A stretch of 64,000 bases of DNA from Patescibacteria group bacterium. Its GTDB lineage: Bacteria; Patescibacteriota; WWE3; UBA101185; UBA10185. This document shows, piece after piece, positions 39,875-59,740 of this stretch. Numbering within the stretch: position 1 is the stretch's first letter; the number at the start of each line of letters is the position of its first letter. The stretch lies in assembly GCA_049322215.1 (NCBI GenBank), contig JBMORU010000001.1:580023-644022 (forward strand). Reading direction: 5' to 3'. The position numbers were made by a program, and so were the translations under genes. A model generated the notes under the pieces. That model was given only the letters and a program-made list of their open reading frames with translations. It had not been told where the DNA came from and ran no database searches.

Positions 39875-40411
39875 TTAATCCTCAGACATTAAAGCAATTT
39901 CGGCACCCGTGAAAGTTCTTGTGTAGAGTCTTCCTCTTTGGTCTTTTGCAAAAACAGTGATTGAATCTTCTTGGGAAATTGATTCTATAGATAGGTGTAT
40001 TACCCCGTTGTCGTGAACGTGATTTGTTCCTACCATTGCTGTGATAATGCTACCTGCAAATTCTGTTGTGAGCGTACTATCTGTAATGTTGGCATTTTCA
40101 ACCCAGTACTCGGTGATTCCTGACTGGCTATACAACAGAATATCTATCCAGCCGGTGCTTTCCAGTTGAATGTCTTCGTCCATATCTCCTGTTGCTATTG
40201 ACATGTTGTTGGTAAACACATCTATCATCATTTGTGGTTCAAAAATCCAAGTATGTCCGCCGTCCGCTTGTTTCATTTGCAGCCAAAACATATTACCCGT
40301 ATCTACAGACGCATGCGGCCCCATTTGGTTGAGGACTGTGTTAAGCATAAATAATGCCAAAGCTAGCAGTGCCGCTAGTCCCGTTATAGTTCTAACGTCT
40401 TTTTTATTCAT
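39875..40411 (-). CDS. Hypothetical secreted or membrane-anchored protein
   Basis: 178 aa with a signal or anchor (ITGLAALLALALFMLNTV). No motif recognised. Confidence 0.45.
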   Translation of the reverse strand: MNKKDVRTITGLAALLALALFMLNTVLNQMGPHASVDTGNMFWLQMKQADGGHTWIFEPQMMIDVFTNNMSIATGDMDEDIQLESTGWIDILLYSQSGITEYWVENANITDSTLTTEFAGSIITAMVGTNHVHDNGVIHLSIESISQEDSITVFAKDQRGRLYTRTFTGAEIALMSED

Positions 40412-40474: not shown

Positions 40475-41734
40475 TTAATGTTTTAAAAAGCTGCTTATTT
40501 TACCCTTTGTGTTATCTGCTTGCAGTGTATCAGCCGTTACAATTGTAAATTCCCCAAATTTGTTGTTTATTAAATCAGAAGTTTTAATAAGTTTCTCGTT
40601 TCTTTGGTATTCTGGTAGCAAATACAAAGGTAAACTCTTTTTTTTTATTAAATTACTTATGCTTACCCCTACTAGTCTTGTTTCCCTATTCCAGTGCATG
40701 TTGGCTAAAATTTTAACGGTGGTGTCGTATATTACTTTTCCATCTTCTGTATAAGTAGCTATCGTGAAATCTTGATGGTATCCTTTTTTACTAGCATCTC
40801 TTAAGTACAACGAAATTGTTTTACCTGCCATTTTGTTTCTACGCAGCCTTCTTGCCACCATTTCCGAAAGTTTTCTCAAGTTGCGCTTAATAATTTGTAA
40901 ATCTTTTGTGTTTTTATTAAGAGTGTGTTGATGTCCTATTGATTTAGGGGCTTTTTTGATCTCGGCTTTACTAACCCTGCTGTAATCTACCCCATAACTT
41001 AAGTTTTTTAGAAATGCGCTTTCTACATTACCAAACGCTTTATAAAGAGTTTCTATATCTATATTTTGGAGATCACATACTGAATAAACACCTAAATTAT
41101 TTAGTCGATATTCAATTTGTCTTCCTATACCACAAAAATCCCTAAGTGATGCTTTTTCCAGTATTGAAAGTAAATTTTCTTGGGTGACTTCTACAATGCC
41201 ATTTGGTTTTTCCATATCAGATACTAATTTAGCTATTAACTTATTTGGGGCGATACCTATTGAGCATGTTATATAAGGGCCAAACTTTTTTTTGACTTTA
41301 TTTTTTATGTCTAAGGCAATAGCTTTAGATGACTCAAAGTTTTTTAGGATGTGCGTAATATCTAAAAATGCCTCATCTATACTGAATGGTTCTATCAAAT
41401 CGGTATACTCATTAAAAATCTTTAAACTTTCTTTTTGAATATATGTGTATTTAGTTCCATCTCCTTTAACCGGCAATATGTTGGGACACAATTCTTTTGC
41501 TTTAAATAAGGGCATACCAGTTTTTACCCCAAAAACCTTTGCTTCTTTTGAAGCGGCGCATATTATAGCTCGGCTTAAAGAACTTCCAGTTATGCCAATA
41601 GGTTTGTTCCTCAAAAAAGGATTAGCTTGCTGTTCTACAGAAGCAAAAAAAGAGTCGTAATCTATATGTAGTATGACTCTATTTTTTGTATTTTTTTGCC
41701 TTAAGTTTGTATTTTTGTTTAATGTTGGGAACAT
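40475..41734 (-). CDS. dinB: Y-family (DinB/UmuC-like) translesion DNA polymerase
   Basis: ILHIDYDSFFASVEQ, the catalytic Asp-containing motif of Y-family polymerases, and SIDEAFLDIT. 419 aa. Confidence 0.8.
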   Translation of the reverse strand: MFPTLNKNTNLRQKNTKNRVILHIDYDSFFASVEQQANPFLRNKPIGITGSSLSRAIICAASKEAKVFGVKTGMPLFKAKELCPNILPVKGDGTKYTYIQKESLKIFNEYTDLIEPFSIDEAFLDITHILKNFESSKAIALDIKNKVKKKFGPYITCSIGIAPNKLIAKLVSDMEKPNGIVEVTQENLLSILEKASLRDFCGIGRQIEYRLNNLGVYSVCDLQNIDIETLYKAFGNVESAFLKNLSYGVDYSRVSKAEIKKAPKSIGHQHTLNKNTKDLQIIKRNLRKLSEMVARRLRRNKMAGKTISLYLRDASKKGYHQDFTIATYTEDGKVIYDTTVKILANMHWNRETRLVGVSISNLIKKKSLPLYLLPEYQRNEKLIKTSDLINNKFGEFTIVTADTLQADNTKGKISSFLKH

Positions 41735-42005
41735 CGTTTAACTTGTAATCTTTTACAAACCCTTCAGAATAAACTTCTTTTATACGCCATAACAAATGTT
41801 TTGTATTAAAAGTTAATTTGAAAGCCTCGTTTTTAGTTGAAACCGCAAAGTGGTATAAAAGACTATCTCCTTCTTTTGAAGTATGTATAAAATTAATATC
41901 TTTAATTTCGTAGTCAGTACCTTTCCAGGTAAAGTACAGTGGTATTGCACCTGCATAAGTGAAGTTTACAAGTATTTCTATAGGGTCATTAACTCTTTCA
42001 AACAT
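41679..42005 (-). CDS. Small protein encoded immediately upstream of the Y-family polymerase and overlapping it by 56 nt; possibly YolD-like (UmuD-analogue)
   Basis: 108 aa with a Lys-rich C-terminus. The position (small gene fused in an operon with a umuC/dinB-type gene) matches Gram-positive yolD/yqjX-type genes. The ATG lies 5 nt downstream of a TATATA -10 box, so the mRNA is probably leaderless. Confidence 0.45.
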   Translation of the reverse strand: MFERVNDPIEILVNFTYAGAIPLYFTWKGTDYEIKDINFIHTSKEGDSLLYHFAVSTKNEAFKLTFNTKHLLWRIKEVYSEGFVKDYKLNDVPNIKQKYKLKAKKYKK

Positions 42006-42011
42006 ATATTA

Positions 42012-42040
42012 TATATACCCGAAACTAACCCGAATGTAAA
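42012..42040 (-). promoter_or_regulatory. Promoter with TTCGG direct repeats in the spacer (candidate SOS operator) for the yolD-like/polymerase operon
   Basis: Read on the minus strand: TTTACA - TTCGGGTTAGTTTCGGG (17 nt) - TATATA. The same architecture is present at lexA. Confidence 0.5.
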
Positions 42041-42109
42041 TATTTATTCTTGCTTTTTTTAAGTTTTTAACCTATATAATAGTAAAACCTCAATCAAAGG
42101 AGACAAATA

Positions 42110-42361
42110 ATGAGCAATAAAGTTATTAGGTATTTTTGGGCTAAGCTTGGAAGTGCCGATACGGTGCAGCACTTGTTGCAGAAAAATCGTTTGACCAGTG
42201 ACATTGAAATACTACCACCAACGCCTGCTTTTGATCCAAAGCATCAGCCGGTACGCTTTATGCACGATACCACAATGCCGTTTAATTTTGATGTAGAAGC
42301 AATGGCGCCACATACAGTAGACAGTGCCAAAATACACGATACTTCTTATAGAAGCTATTAG
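42110..42361 (+). CDS. Small protein, family A paralogue 1 (unknown function)
   Basis: 83 aa with SD aaaggagacaaataATG. It is 35-40% identical to the next ORF (MSN..Y.WA..G.A..V..LL.K....EI.PP..FDP..QPV.F.....PFN.D....T.D.A.IH). Confidence 0.5.
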   Translation: MSNKVIRYFWAKLGSADTVQHLLQKNRLTSDIEILPPTPAFDPKHQPVRFMHDTTMPFNFDVEAMAPHTVDSAKIHDTSYRSY

Positions 42362-42375
42362 CAAGGAGGTTACTC

Positions 42376-42633
42376 GTGTCAAATATTGATTTTGGTTATT
42401 TATGGGCGAGTATTGGGAATGCTAACAAAGTACGTGATTTATTAAATAAGCACGTTCAAGCGTCTGGTGTTGAAATAATGCCCCCAGAACTTGGCTTTGA
42501 CCCACCATATCAACCTGTGGAGTTTTGTTACAACAGAAGCATACCGTTTAACCTCGATAGGTCAGTTTTTGGGCCGTATACCATAGATAACGCACGCATT
42601 CACTCGGGTACAAGAAAAGTCAAAAGATCCTGA
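42376..42633 (+). CDS. Small protein, family A paralogue 2 (unknown function)
   Basis: 85 aa with a GTG start and SD caaggaggttactcGTG. Tandem paralogue of 42110..42361. Confidence 0.5.
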   Translation: MSNIDFGYLWASIGNANKVRDLLNKHVQASGVEIMPPELGFDPPYQPVEFCYNRSIPFNLDRSVFGPYTIDNARIHSGTRKVKRS

Positions 42634-42638
42634 CTTGA

Positions 42639-42690
42639 GTTGCTGCTAATTGGTTTTAAAATTGATTAGCAGCAATTTAATTATTGACAC
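42639..42690 (+). terminator. Stem-loop (probable terminator) after the family A pair
   Basis: TTGCTGCTAAT / 15-nt loop / ATTAGCAGCAA forms an 11-bp stem followed by TTTAATTATT. Confidence 0.45.
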
Positions 42691-42699
42691 CGACTTTAT

Positions 42700-42866
42700 A
42701 TCATTATAGATTCAAACTAGTTTAAACTACGACGGCCTTTGGAAAGCCAGAGTTTTAATTTAATATTAAGCGGACTGTTTACAGTCAAGCGGGGTGGAAC
42801 CGCGCAAGTTTACACTTTCGTCCCCGAATTTATATAATAGATTTGGTGGTAGATAAGTGTTTTTTT
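42700..42866 (+). promoter_or_regulatory. Putative T-box riboswitch-like leader of glyQS
   Basis: GGGTGGAACCGCG at 42792..42804 matches the T-box core GGGUGGNACCGCG at every defined position. A GGC (Gly) codon lies in a small hairpin GGCCUUUGGAAAGCC upstream. No canonical terminator U-tract was found, only a CGGGG/CCCCG helix. Confidence 0.4.
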
Positions 42867-44339
42867 ATGTCTGAAATAACTCTTCAAAAAATAGTAGCTC
42901 TAGCTAAGCGCCGTGGATTTGTATTTCCGGGTTCGGAAATATATGGCGGACTTGCTAACACCTATGATATGGGACCTTTAGGGGTTGAATTACTTCGTAA
43001 TATTCAAAATTCCTGGTGGAAAACTTTTGTGCATAATAGAGAAGATATAGTTGGTTTAGATACAAGTATTTTGATGTCTCCTCGTGTTTGGGAAGCCTCT
43101 GGTCACACGCAAAGCTTTACTGATGTACTAATCGATTGTAAAGAATGTAAAACACGCACTAGAGCAGATCACTTGATTGAAGACTGGTTTGCGGAGTCAA
43201 AGCGGGAGCTTGCCCGTAATGATGAAAAAGGTAAGGGGACTTATGTTGCGCATGTGGAAACCGAGGTAGGGTCTTTAAATGCCGCGCTAGATTCTAGTGC
43301 TGAAATTAACCAATCTGTCGAAGGACTTTCCCCAGAAGAATTAGAAAAAATAATTAAAACAAACAAAATAACATGTCCTTCATGCAAGAAACTTAATTGG
43401 ACTAAACCTCGCGCATTTAATTTATTATTTGAAACAAATGTGGGAATAGTAGAAGAAAGTCAGTCAAAAGTTTATTTGCGAGGAGAAATAGCTCAAGGAA
43501 TGTTTGTAAATTTTAAAAATGTGCTAGATACTGTGCGTCCTAAACTACCTTTTGGTATTGCTCAATCAGGTAAAGCCTTTAGAAATGAAATAACTTTAGG
43601 TAATTTTATATTTAGAACTCTTGAATTTAACTTAGCCGAATTTGAATACTTTATAGACCCTAAAGAATCTTCATGGGAAGAAGTTTTTGAATACTGGCAG
43701 GATGAAGTAAAAGCTTGGGTTTTGTCATTAGGTATAGACAGCAAAAAACTTAAATGGCGTCCACATACAGATGAAGAGCGTGCACATTATTCTACAAGAA
43801 CAGAAGATATAGACTTTGAGTTTCCAATGGGTTTTAAAGAAATGGCTGCAGTTGCATATAGAACTGATTACGACCTACGCAATCACATGGAAAAATCAGG
43901 CCAGGATATGCGCTACACAAACCCTCAAACCGGTGAAAAATTTATACCACACGTTATAGAACCTACCTTTGGTATTAATCGCGTGTTTTTAGCTTTACTG
44001 GTAGATGCTTATGCAGAAGAAGAAAATAGAACAGTTTTAAAACTCGATCCTAAAATTGCACCTTATAGAGCAGCGGTGTTTCCTTTAGTACGAAATAAAC
44101 CTGAAATTACCGATTATGCACGCAAAGTGTTTTCACAACTTTCCAACATCGTAAACGTTGCTTGGGATGATCGTGGTAATATAGGTAAGCGCTATTTAAG
44201 CCAAGATGAAATTGGAACCCCATATTGCATAACTGTTGATTATGATACTTTACAGGACAACTCCGTTACAGTAAGGCATAGAGATACAACCAAACAAGAA
44301 CGTGTCTCAGTAGATAATCTCATTAAGTACATTAGCTAA
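42867..44339 (+). CDS. glyQS: Glycine--tRNA ligase (class II, single-chain alpha2 type)
   Basis: IVALAKRRGFVFPGSEIYGGLANTYDMGPLGVELLRNIQNSWW and the class II motifs. The start was placed at the ATG at 42867 (MSEITLQ) rather than the listed TTG at 42843. Confidence 0.85.
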   Translation: MSEITLQKIVALAKRRGFVFPGSEIYGGLANTYDMGPLGVELLRNIQNSWWKTFVHNREDIVGLDTSILMSPRVWEASGHTQSFTDVLIDCKECKTRTRADHLIEDWFAESKRELARNDEKGKGTYVAHVETEVGSLNAALDSSAEINQSVEGLSPEELEKIIKTNKITCPSCKKLNWTKPRAFNLLFETNVGIVEESQSKVYLRGEIAQGMFVNFKNVLDTVRPKLPFGIAQSGKAFRNEITLGNFIFRTLEFNLAEFEYFIDPKESSWEEVFEYWQDEVKAWVLSLGIDSKKLKWRPHTDEERAHYSTRTEDIDFEFPMGFKEMAAVAYRTDYDLRNHMEKSGQDMRYTNPQTGEKFIPHVIEPTFGINRVFLALLVDAYAEEENRTVLKLDPKIAPYRAAVFPLVRNKPEITDYARKVFSQLSNIVNVAWDDRGNIGKRYLSQDEIGTPYCITVDYDTLQDNSVTVRHRDTTKQERVSVDNLIKYIS

Positions 44340-46854: not shown

Positions 46855-46919
46855 TTGTTTTCTCCTTTTAGTATTTGCTTGTAGTATAGCATTTTCGGGT
46901 TCTGTTTGTATTGACAATG

Positions 46920-58315: not shown

Positions 58316-58939
58316 TTAGTATTTTCTTATTACGCCTGTTACTTTTCCTTGTATTTGCAAATCTCCTGGATTTACATAAATAGGATCCATATTTTGATTA
58401 GCGGGTTGTAAGCGTACTCTATCTTTTTCTTTATAAAATGTTTTTAGTGTTGCAAAATTATTATCAATTAGAGCTACAATAATATCTCCATTGTTTGCTG
58501 TTTCTTGCTTTTGTATTACTACGTAGTCTCCATCATGAATGCCTTCTTCAATCATGGAGTCACCACGAACTTGTAGTACATAACATCGCTTAACTCGTGA
58601 AACTAAATCAGGAGAAACCACAATAGTTTGAGTGCTGTCTTCGATAGCATCAATAGGTTCACCTGCTGCAATGAAACCTACTAATGGAAGCTCTATTCCT
58701 TGTAGGGTTGCATTTACTTTTTCATCTAAAATTTCTATTCCCCTAACAGCTCCTTCAAATCTCTTTATAACACCTTTTTTAACTAGTGCTTGCAAATGTT
58801 CGTGCACTGTAGCTAATGATGATAAGCTCATTGCGTCTGCAATTTCTTGCAATGTAGGAGAGGATCCATTTTTTTGAATATATTGGGAAATAAAGTCTAG
58901 AATTTCTTTTTGACGTTTATATAAAGTAACTGCACACAT
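58316..58939 (-). CDS. lexA: LexA repressor (SOS regulator, S24 self-cleaving peptidase)
   Basis: N-terminal winged HTH (RQKEILDFISQYIQKNGSSPTLQEIA). C-terminal LQVRGDSMIEEGI (Ser nucleophile) and the Lys in GKVTGVIRKY. Confidence 0.85.
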   Translation of the reverse strand: MCAVTLYKRQKEILDFISQYIQKNGSSPTLQEIADAMSLSSLATVHEHLQALVKKGVIKRFEGAVRGIEILDEKVNATLQGIELPLVGFIAAGEPIDAIEDSTQTIVVSPDLVSRVKRCYVLQVRGDSMIEEGIHDGDYVVIQKQETANNGDIIVALIDNNFATLKTFYKEKDRVRLQPANQNMDPIYVNPGDLQIQGKVTGVIRKY

Positions 58940-58983
58940 AGAAGACCTTTCTAAATAATTTTGGGTTTCTTTTGGTAAAATAA

Positions 58984-59012
58984 ATATACCGAAGAGTTAC
59001 CGAAGATGTCAA
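58984..59012 (-). promoter_or_regulatory. lexA promoter with two TTCGGTA direct repeats filling the -35/-10 spacer (candidate SOS operator)
   Basis: Read on the minus strand: TTGACA - TCTTCGGTAACTCTTCG (17 nt) - GTATAT. Confidence 0.55.
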
Positions 59013-59690: not shown

Positions 59691-59740
59691 TGCTAATACA
59701 ACTCCAAACAAAACCCAAAACTTATGTTAAAATTTAATTT

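Follow-up and report, generated by a model that had tools for sequence, protein, structure and literature searches.

Two small paralogous genes divergent from dinB

The window analysed here, a 64,000-nucleotide stretch of the Patescibacteria contig JBMORU010000001.1, contains a tandem pair of small paralogous genes, A and B, situated between a Y-family polymerase operon and a glyRS gene. Gene A (42110-42361, + strand) starts with ATG and encodes an orphan protein of 83 aa with a predicted ferredoxin-like fold, and its paralogue gene B (42376-42633, + strand) starts with GTG and encodes 85 aa. Each is preceded by a strong Shine-Dalgarno (SD) sequence, AAAGGAGA for A (42096-42103, + strand; 7 nt ahead of the ATG) and AAGGAGG for B (42363-42369, + strand; 6 nt ahead of the GTG), whereas among the window's larger genes only about one in five has such a site. 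The pair is transcribed divergently from a - strand operon containing a small open reading frame (ORF; 41679-42005) and the polymerase gene (40475-41734). The two ORFs, their SD sequences and their orientation reproduce what an earlier reading of the letters alone (the sequence-only reading) had described.

That reading also called A and B clear paralogues with a common motif, and the comparison bears this out. BLASTP aligns the two proteins without gaps with 34 of 81 residues identical (42%; E 3e-27), and the invariant columns match the motif. The genes share 53% nucleotide identity, with a proportion of synonymous differences (pS) of 0.79; the saturated synonymous sites together with 42% aa identity indicate that the duplication is old. 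Judged from these alignments, the likeness between A and B is maintained in the protein and not in the DNA. Both proteins are soluble, with grand averages of hydropathy of -0.50 and -0.43 and isoelectric points of 7.0 and 8.9 for A and B respectively, and no hydrophobic segment is visible in either by sequence, no dedicated transmembrane prediction having been run.

A sigma-70-type promoter for the pair can be read from the sequence at 42050-42080 (+ strand), with the predicted -35 hexamer TTGCTT (42050-42055) and a -10 hexamer that is either TATAAT (42075-42080, with a 19-nt spacer) or TATATA (42073-42078, with a 17-nt spacer); a promoter scan missed it because of the spacer length. The -35 and -10 hexamers are identical in the related contig L001 (see below), and the spacer has three substitutions.

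To the 3' side of B a hairpin with a U-rich tail (42635-42690, + strand) forms a probable intrinsic terminator of the A-B operon, in agreement with the earlier claim that the pair is followed by a terminator. The hairpin (42635-42680) is a perfect 21-bp stem with a predicted energy of -23.3 kcal/mol (z -6.2 versus shuffled sequences) followed by UUAUUG within a U-rich stretch, and it was not flagged by a simple terminator scan. A low-confidence Rfam alignment to a T-box-like leader, described below, runs through this hairpin, and we considered whether it could be stem I of that leader. We rejected this, as the 21 bp are perfectly paired without internal loops, a separate promoter lies 3' of the hairpin, and the Rfam alignment starts later in L001. 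The hairpin is best read, from its sequence and position, as the A-B terminator.

A and B are under purifying selection

Both genes are present in L001, a 954-bp contig from a different sample (ERR15087771) that is independent of the low-GC (34%) metagenome-assembled genome from which the window derives. It spans 41973-42926 with 94.3% identity and no indels. Differences are concentrated at third codon positions (A, 12 of 14; B, 18 of 24; combined, 30 of 38), and the ratios of nonsynonymous to synonymous substitution rates (dN/dS, Nei-Gojobori) are 0.035 for A and 0.082 for B, from which we conclude that A and B are proteins under strong purifying selection. The start codon of B is GTG in the window and ATG in L001, an exchange that confirms its position, and the SD sequence of B is CAGGGGG in L001.

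The distribution of differences along L001 is uneven. The segment 42634-42867 has 2.6% divergence, versus 24-31% at the synonymous sites of A and B. All 38 coding differences sit within A and B (dS 0.29-0.41), and there are none in the 33 nt of the DUF6504-like small ORF and the 59 nt of glyRS that the contig includes, nor in the non-coding segment 42638-42716; these zero-difference flanks are short and may merely reflect constraint at gene starts.

Searches for relatives

The sequence-only reading did not recognise the family, and no library or database that we scanned contains a relative. Neither protein has a match in Pfam, NCBIfam, PHROGs or PADLOC at E values up to 1, and a family profile searched against all PDB sequences gave noise only, with no IsdG/ABM match at E values up to 10. 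A word-indexed search of 5.8 billion proteins recovered the proteins themselves and the 95% variant from L001 only; protein A is identical to the NCBI entry 'MAG: hypothetical protein ACOZAO_03285'. No A/B relatives turned up in GTDB genomes, JGI metagenomes or IMG/VR when these were scanned by pattern and tblastn, or in phage and plasmid collections scanned by tblastn. Comparisons by hhalign with the DUF6504-like family and with a second small gene pair in the window (C1 and C2, described below) gave probabilities of at most 0.2%. On the evidence of these searches, A/B is a family without detectable relatives beyond its own species-level lineage (L001 and L002). The suggestion that the pair could be a toxin or inhibitor-like factor finds no toxin, inhibitor or defence signature in PADLOC, PHROG or Pfam at E up to 1.

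A HMMER profile searched against 1.84 billion cluster representatives returned, besides the proteins themselves, only the repeat proteins P0003 and P0004. We reject both as relatives and treat the matches as artefacts, since their scores are sums across multiple repeats. P0004 is a giant metagenomic repeat protein of 1624 aa in which a motif (..LLDSGVELVQPAFAFDTD..) loosely like residues 21-44 of A and B (LL....SGVEI.PP..FDP) recurs about 40 times, and its HMMER E value of 2.7e-4 is summed over five repeats; the repeat motif SGVELVQPAFAFD loosely resembles SGVEIMPPELGFD. From the sequences involved, the resemblance is probably spurious.

Predicted structures

Models of A and B were built with AlphaFold2 from one shared alignment of three sequences, using each protein as the target in turn. 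The predicted local distance difference test and template modelling scores (pLDDT and pTM) are 76.6 and 0.66 for A, and 81.7 and 0.72 for B. DSSP assigns to the A model strands at 4-11, 32-35, 47-53 and 75-77 and helices at 16-30 and 62-68, and to the B model strands at 2-11, 30-34, 46-52 and 76-82 and helices at 16-26 and 62-68. Each protein is thus predicted to be a small soluble ferredoxin-like alpha+beta domain of the form beta-alpha-beta-beta-alpha-beta, a class assignment made on the predicted order of secondary-structure elements. The loop between strands 2 and 3 is conserved, is 11 residues long, and contains the invariant proline-rich motif PP..FDP..QP, and the invariant polar residues include N3, E33, D42, Q46, N59, D61 and H76.

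Foldseek matches of the models are generic, and include BMC-H, IsdG/ABM, ACT, PII-like SbtB, S6 and E2 DNA-binding domain structures. They are also weak, with TM scores of about 0.5-0.6, root-mean-square deviations of 3.6-7 Å, and E values above 0.01 throughout. The top matches of A are BMC-H proteins (E at least 0.019, TM 0.55), and there is neither a Pfam match to BMC-H (PF00936) nor a BMC enzyme locus among the neighbours dinB, glyRS, relA/spoT and recO; SbtB (6mmq_A) has the highest TM score, 0.62, yet an E value of 0.18. The Pfam profiles of ABM (PF03992), P-II and BMC do not match A or B even at E 1. Because the fold class is ordinary and these matches are generic and weak, no specific superfamily can be claimed. 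Structure prediction, which the sequence-only reading had looked to for a clue, thus yields compact ferredoxin-like models for both proteins but no specific structural match.

The adjacent probable SOS promoter

The operon divergent from A and B comprises a DUF6504-like small ORF of 108 aa (41679-42005, - strand) located upstream of dinB (40475-41734, - strand) with a 56-nt overlap; dinB encodes a Y-family polymerase with IMS domains (E 4.5e-47). The small ORF had been labelled yolD, and this name is not sustained: it has no YolD Pfam match, and 9 of its 11 homologues match DUF6504 instead. The operon promoter on the - strand is TTTACA-TTCGGGTTAGTTTCGGG-TATATAAT, and inside it is a candidate LexA box, TTCGGGTTAGTTTCGG (42019-42034, - strand). 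The ATG of the small ORF is about 7 nt past the -10 hexamer, which suggests that its mRNA is leaderless.

The window also contains a bona fide lexA gene (58316-58939, - strand), with Peptidase_S24 and LexA_DNA_bind domains, and its promoter is of like design, TTGACA-tc-TTCGGTAACTCTTCGG-TATATT. The exact repeat TTCGG-N6-TTCGG occurs at only two sites in the 64 kb, which lie between the -35 and -10 hexamers of the small ORF/dinB operon and of lexA. A looser form, TTYGG-N6-TTYGG, has six exact matches in the window versus 0.67 expected, with a further site in the lexA leader and another in the uvrB promoter among them; the six include the boxes at 42019-42034, 58960-58975, 58989-59004 and 59704-59719. 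The half-sites of the 42019-42034 box are identical in L001, the repeat is also present between the -35 and -10 hexamers of the small ORF/dinB promoter in the relatives L003-L006, and among 80 metagenomic lexA loci (L009-L088) many have it at the lexA promoter. Direct-repeat LexA motifs are known elsewhere, for example GTTC-N7-GTTC in Alphaproteobacteria (PMC8565304).

The earlier proposal of a candidate SOS promoter is therefore credible, since the exact repeat is common to the dinB-operon and lexA promoters and recurs in the lexA promoters of relatives; judging from these sequences, it is very probable that the promoter beside A-B is truly SOS-controlled. Sites with one mismatch to the LexA box include TTTGGGCTAAGCTTGG within gene A (42135-42150, + strand, codons 9-14) and TTCGGGTTCTGTTTGT at 46894-46909 (+ strand) in the divergent intergenic region upstream of mraZ, and such sites are only about twofold above chance. 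In other relatives (L003-L008 and L051-L082 examined) the DUF6504-like gene comes immediately after lexA, or the two are divergently arranged.

The position of the box relative to the A-B promoter is a separate matter. The 42019-42034 box ends 16 bp upstream of the predicted -35 hexamer of A, corresponding to about -53 to -68 from the predicted transcription start, and does not overlap the promoter. With the start as predicted, this is not a position that would occlude RNA polymerase at the A promoter, and we find for A-B no LexA operator overlapping or immediately downstream of its own promoter. The description of the pair as wired to a DNA-damage locus thus reduces to adjacency, the box being clear of A's predicted promoter. 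As far as the sequence goes, membership of A-B in the SOS regulon is unproven, and the pair is adjacent to an apparently genuine SOS promoter.

The A-B slot in related genomes

Three relatives (L003, L004 and L005) keep the block DUF4012-recO-dinB-small ORF followed by glyRS and, further on, mraZ-rsmH. In all three, glyRS is directly divergent from the dinB operon, and A and B are absent from the syntenic locus. Because relatives of the same synteny lack the two genes, we regard A-B as a lineage-specific occupant of a variable slot. Relatives of A and B are likewise absent from L003-L008 and from the 80 lexA loci. Co-occurrence with Y-family polymerase loci, which the sequence-only reading had raised, therefore does not extend to the syntenic relatives, and linkage is seen only in one species-level lineage (L001 and L002).

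A second orphan pair and other lineage-specific genes

A second pair of small genes, C1 (59083-59355, + strand, 90 aa) and C2 (59366-59632, + strand, 88 aa), is located divergent from lexA and upstream of uvrB. The two products share 34% identity (E 2e-11) and the common motifs Y-D..G-WWG..N..T-C-W; the genes have strong SD sequences and their own terminator, and box-like sites are present on both sides of them. Neither C1 nor C2 has a Pfam match or relatives in the 80 lexA loci, and the closest lexA relative (L043) has different genes in this slot.

An all-versus-all comparison of ORFs of at least 45 aa identifies A/B and C1/C2 as the only two small tandem paralogue pairs in the window, and both are the divergent neighbours of the two promoters with exact LexA boxes. 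The chance of both pairs lying beside exact boxes is p ~7e-4 if they are placed at random among about 55 gene slots, and p ~0.06 if placement is restricted to the six divergent intergenic regions of the window. We rejected the idea that tandem small paralogue pairs are a recurrent theme near lexA or dinB, finding one in only 1 of about 86 loci (L011). The L011 pair (1952-2723, - strand; 123 and 135 aa with 37% identity) lies on the strand opposite to lexA, about 1.3 kb upstream of it.

A and B have a GC content of 41-42% and a GC content at third codon positions (GC3) of 0.35-0.39, relative to window means of 34.5% and 0.27. Taken together, A, B, C1, C2 and a 178-aa ORF on the other side of dinB (see below) have GC contents of 40-43%, and their conserved neighbours 29-37%. 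For GC3 the increase is clear in A, B and the 178-aa ORF (0.35-0.40 versus 0.17-0.26) and only slight in C1 and C2 (about 0.30). The raised GC and GC3 are compatible with a foreign origin of these genes.

Interpretation of the A-B operon

We propose that A and B form an accessory, lineage-restricted two-gene operon whose ferredoxin-like products would jointly form a hetero-oligomer that binds a partner protein or a ligand, and we give this reading about an even chance of being correct. The operon would be self-contained, having a promoter and a terminator of its own as well as two strong ribosome-binding sites, and would occupy a variable intergenic region between two conserved divergent units, the LexA-controlled DUF6504-like/dinB operon and glyRS. 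As most small proteins of this fold are oligomeric (such as ABM/IsdG dimers, ACT domains and PII-like trimers), we infer that the co-translated paralogues probably assemble through their beta-sheets into a hetero-oligomer. By the same analogy they would probably bind a partner protein or small ligand, and in the models the invariant sheet residues Y8, W10, E33, F50 and H76 and the invariant loop PP..FDP..QP form the surfaces at which contact is likely. A-B would be an accessory module that may have arrived by horizontal transfer, rather than a conserved part of the translesion-synthesis cassette. Its promoter is back-to-back with a LexA-repressed one, so that some damage-dependent modulation could occur, and nothing seen requires it.

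Several points weigh against this proposal. Hetero-oligomerisation and the binding of a ligand or partner are drawn from the fold class and the gene arrangement; the models were built on three sequences, and the remaining four models of each run scored lower; the raised GC could stem from amino-acid composition rather than foreign origin; and both orphan pairs adjoin promoters with exact LexA boxes, which hints at a closer tie to the SOS response than that of an accessory bystander.

That tie is central to the explanation that survives next best, which we consider unlikely, namely that A and B are SOS-induced effectors whose promoter is limited by LexA, so that they are made with the Y-family polymerase upon damage and modulate translesion synthesis, replication or cell division. 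The box beside A-B is very probably a real LexA operator, but it lies off A's predicted -35 and -10 hexamers, at about -53 to -68, and the one-mismatch site within gene A (42135-42150) belongs to a class of sites that is only about twofold enriched over chance. The window's only two small tandem paralogue pairs are both divergent from exact LexA-box promoters, but relatives with the same dinB locus lack A and B, the 80 lexA loci contain no relatives of A, B, C1 or C2, and tandem small pairs occur near lexA in only 1 of about 86 loci. In Gram-positive bacteria, genes divergent from lexA are often SOS effectors (yneA, sosA, chiZ), which favours a role of this kind, but no transmembrane segment of the YneA/SosA type is visible in A or B. 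A broader version, in which the SOS regulon has recruited the two unrelated pairs A/B and C1/C2 as damage-induced hetero-oligomeric effectors, with promoters sharing LexA-occupied control regions, would on the sequence evidence be unlikely; in an ultra-small epibiont such recruited pairs could, for example, modulate translesion synthesis, replication or division.

Comparison with known small SOS proteins does not provide a close parallel. YneA of Bacillus subtilis, SosA of Staphylococcus aureus and ChiZ of Mycobacterium tuberculosis are small, SOS-induced, lineage-specific and poorly conserved, and their genes are divergent from LexA-controlled promoters; they span the membrane once, frequently have LysM domains, and are expressed from promoters that themselves contain LexA boxes. 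A and B resemble them in being small and divergent from a promoter with a candidate LexA operator, but they differ in lying beside dinB rather than lexA, in forming a paralogous pair, in having no visible transmembrane segment, and in having no box over their promoter. UmuD', YolD and the DUF6504-like ORF are, like A and B, products of small genes adjoining an SOS-controlled Y-family polymerase gene, but these are co-transcribed and conserved with the polymerase whereas A and B are on the opposite strand and absent from relatives; nor does hhalign relate the sequences of A and B to that of the DUF6504-like ORF (probability 0.2%).

A third explanation, that A and B are diverged small-molecule-binding or catalytic members of a ferredoxin-like superfamily, such as an ABM/IsdG-type oxygenase or heme-degrading dimer or a PII-like nucleotide-sensing trimer, we regard as improbable. 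IsdG/ABM structures are among the top Foldseek matches of B (8avh_A, 1xbw, 2zdo, 1tz0) and are also seen for A (4dn9, 2omo, 4fnh), and PII-like SbtB gives the highest TM score (0.62), but the structural matches are weak and scattered across many unrelated ferredoxin-like families, there is no Pfam ABM, P-II or BMC match at E 1, and no PDB profile match. The invariant polar residues speak in favour, as does the long conserved loop between strands 2 and 3, which sits at the place of the T-loop of PII proteins, trimers with nucleotide sites in the clefts between subunits. The catalytic triad of IsdG is Asn7/Trp67/His77, with the Asn on strand 1 and the His following helix 2. In A and B, N3 is invariant, W10 is on strand 1, and H76, the only invariant His, is on strand 4; after helix 2 there is no invariant His or Trp, position 68 being H in A and Y in B, and no clear counterpart of the triad is seen when the residues are compared by their place in the secondary structure. 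ABM/IsdG, ACT and PII-like SbtB proteins resemble A and B in size (about 80-110 aa), predicted secondary-structure order and solubility, and they are usually oligomeric, which fits two co-expressed paralogues; however, neither A nor B resembles them in sequence or by profile, the TM scores are only 0.5-0.6, and the signature residues (the IsdG triad and the PII motifs) are not found.

We are similarly doubtful that A-B is a horizontally acquired selfish or conflict cassette, whether toxin-antitoxin-like, anti-phage or anti-host, residing in a permissive divergent intergenic region. The insertion is lineage-specific, but it is stable in the same context in a strain diverged by 6% (L001). Its GC and GC3 are atypical, its SD sequences are strong where most genes have none, and its layout from promoter to terminator is compact, but no relative is present in PADLOC, PHROG, phage, plasmid or IMG/VR collections, and A and B are paralogous to each other, unlike toxin-antitoxin pairs. 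There is no integrase, and flanking repeats are unconvincing: insertion as a mobile element was considered and rejected, the best flanking repeat matching at 12 of 14 positions (42029-42042 and 42823-42836), likely by chance.

Finally, although the pair is immediately upstream of the T-box-like leader and the Rfam alignment nominally starts within the end of B, it is extremely unlikely that A and B are ORFs arisen by chance, or that they belong to the glyRS T-box unit as upstream ORFs or leader elements, given the dN/dS values and third-position differences, paralogy conserved in the protein and not in the DNA, confident compact fold predictions, and the hairpin and separate TTGACA-17-TAGATT promoter that divide the pair from the leader, with the Rfam alignment starting past B in L001.

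If A-B is an accessory orphan operon, as we favour, it is one more case of the lineage-specific small proteins of candidate-phyla bacteria, and is useful mainly as a clean example validated by selection. If the SOS link is true, it would show a minimal-genome epibiont adding recently gained small effectors to a LexA regulon of very limited size, and would yield two new families of proteins whose part in controlling replication, mutagenesis or division could be tested. Of more use among the by-products of the analysis are what was learned of the LexA box and the second pair C1/C2, and the direct-repeat LexA box across many Patescibacteria lexA promoters, together with the lexA/DUF6504-like/dinB cassette, is sturdier than any function for A and B.

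Flanking features

Between dinB and recO is an ORF of 178 aa (39875-40411, - strand) with a strong SD sequence and an N-terminal hydrophobic segment; its GC content is 41% and its GC3 0.40. It has no Pfam match, and L004 and L005 lack it at the corresponding place. Judged from this comparison, it is another lineage-specific insertion.

On the other side of A-B, a promoter (TTGACA-17-TAGATT; 42684-42712, + strand) located 3' of the terminator hairpin would serve the T-box-like leader upstream of glyRS. The leader (42684-42866, + strand) scores 42.4 bits with Rfam (E 3e-8), relative to a gathering score of 93, and contains a canonical GGGUGGAACCGCG element, a terminator hairpin and a U7 run directly ahead of the glyRS ATG. 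The Rfam alignment nominally begins inside the 3' end of B, and in L001 it begins past B. A T-box leader was not detected upstream of glyRS in L003 and L004, the two syntenic relatives scanned. The true start of glyRS is the ATG at 42867 rather than the TTG at 42843. The stem I region of the leader is unusually short, with GGA-A in the loop of a small hairpin at about 42737-42752.

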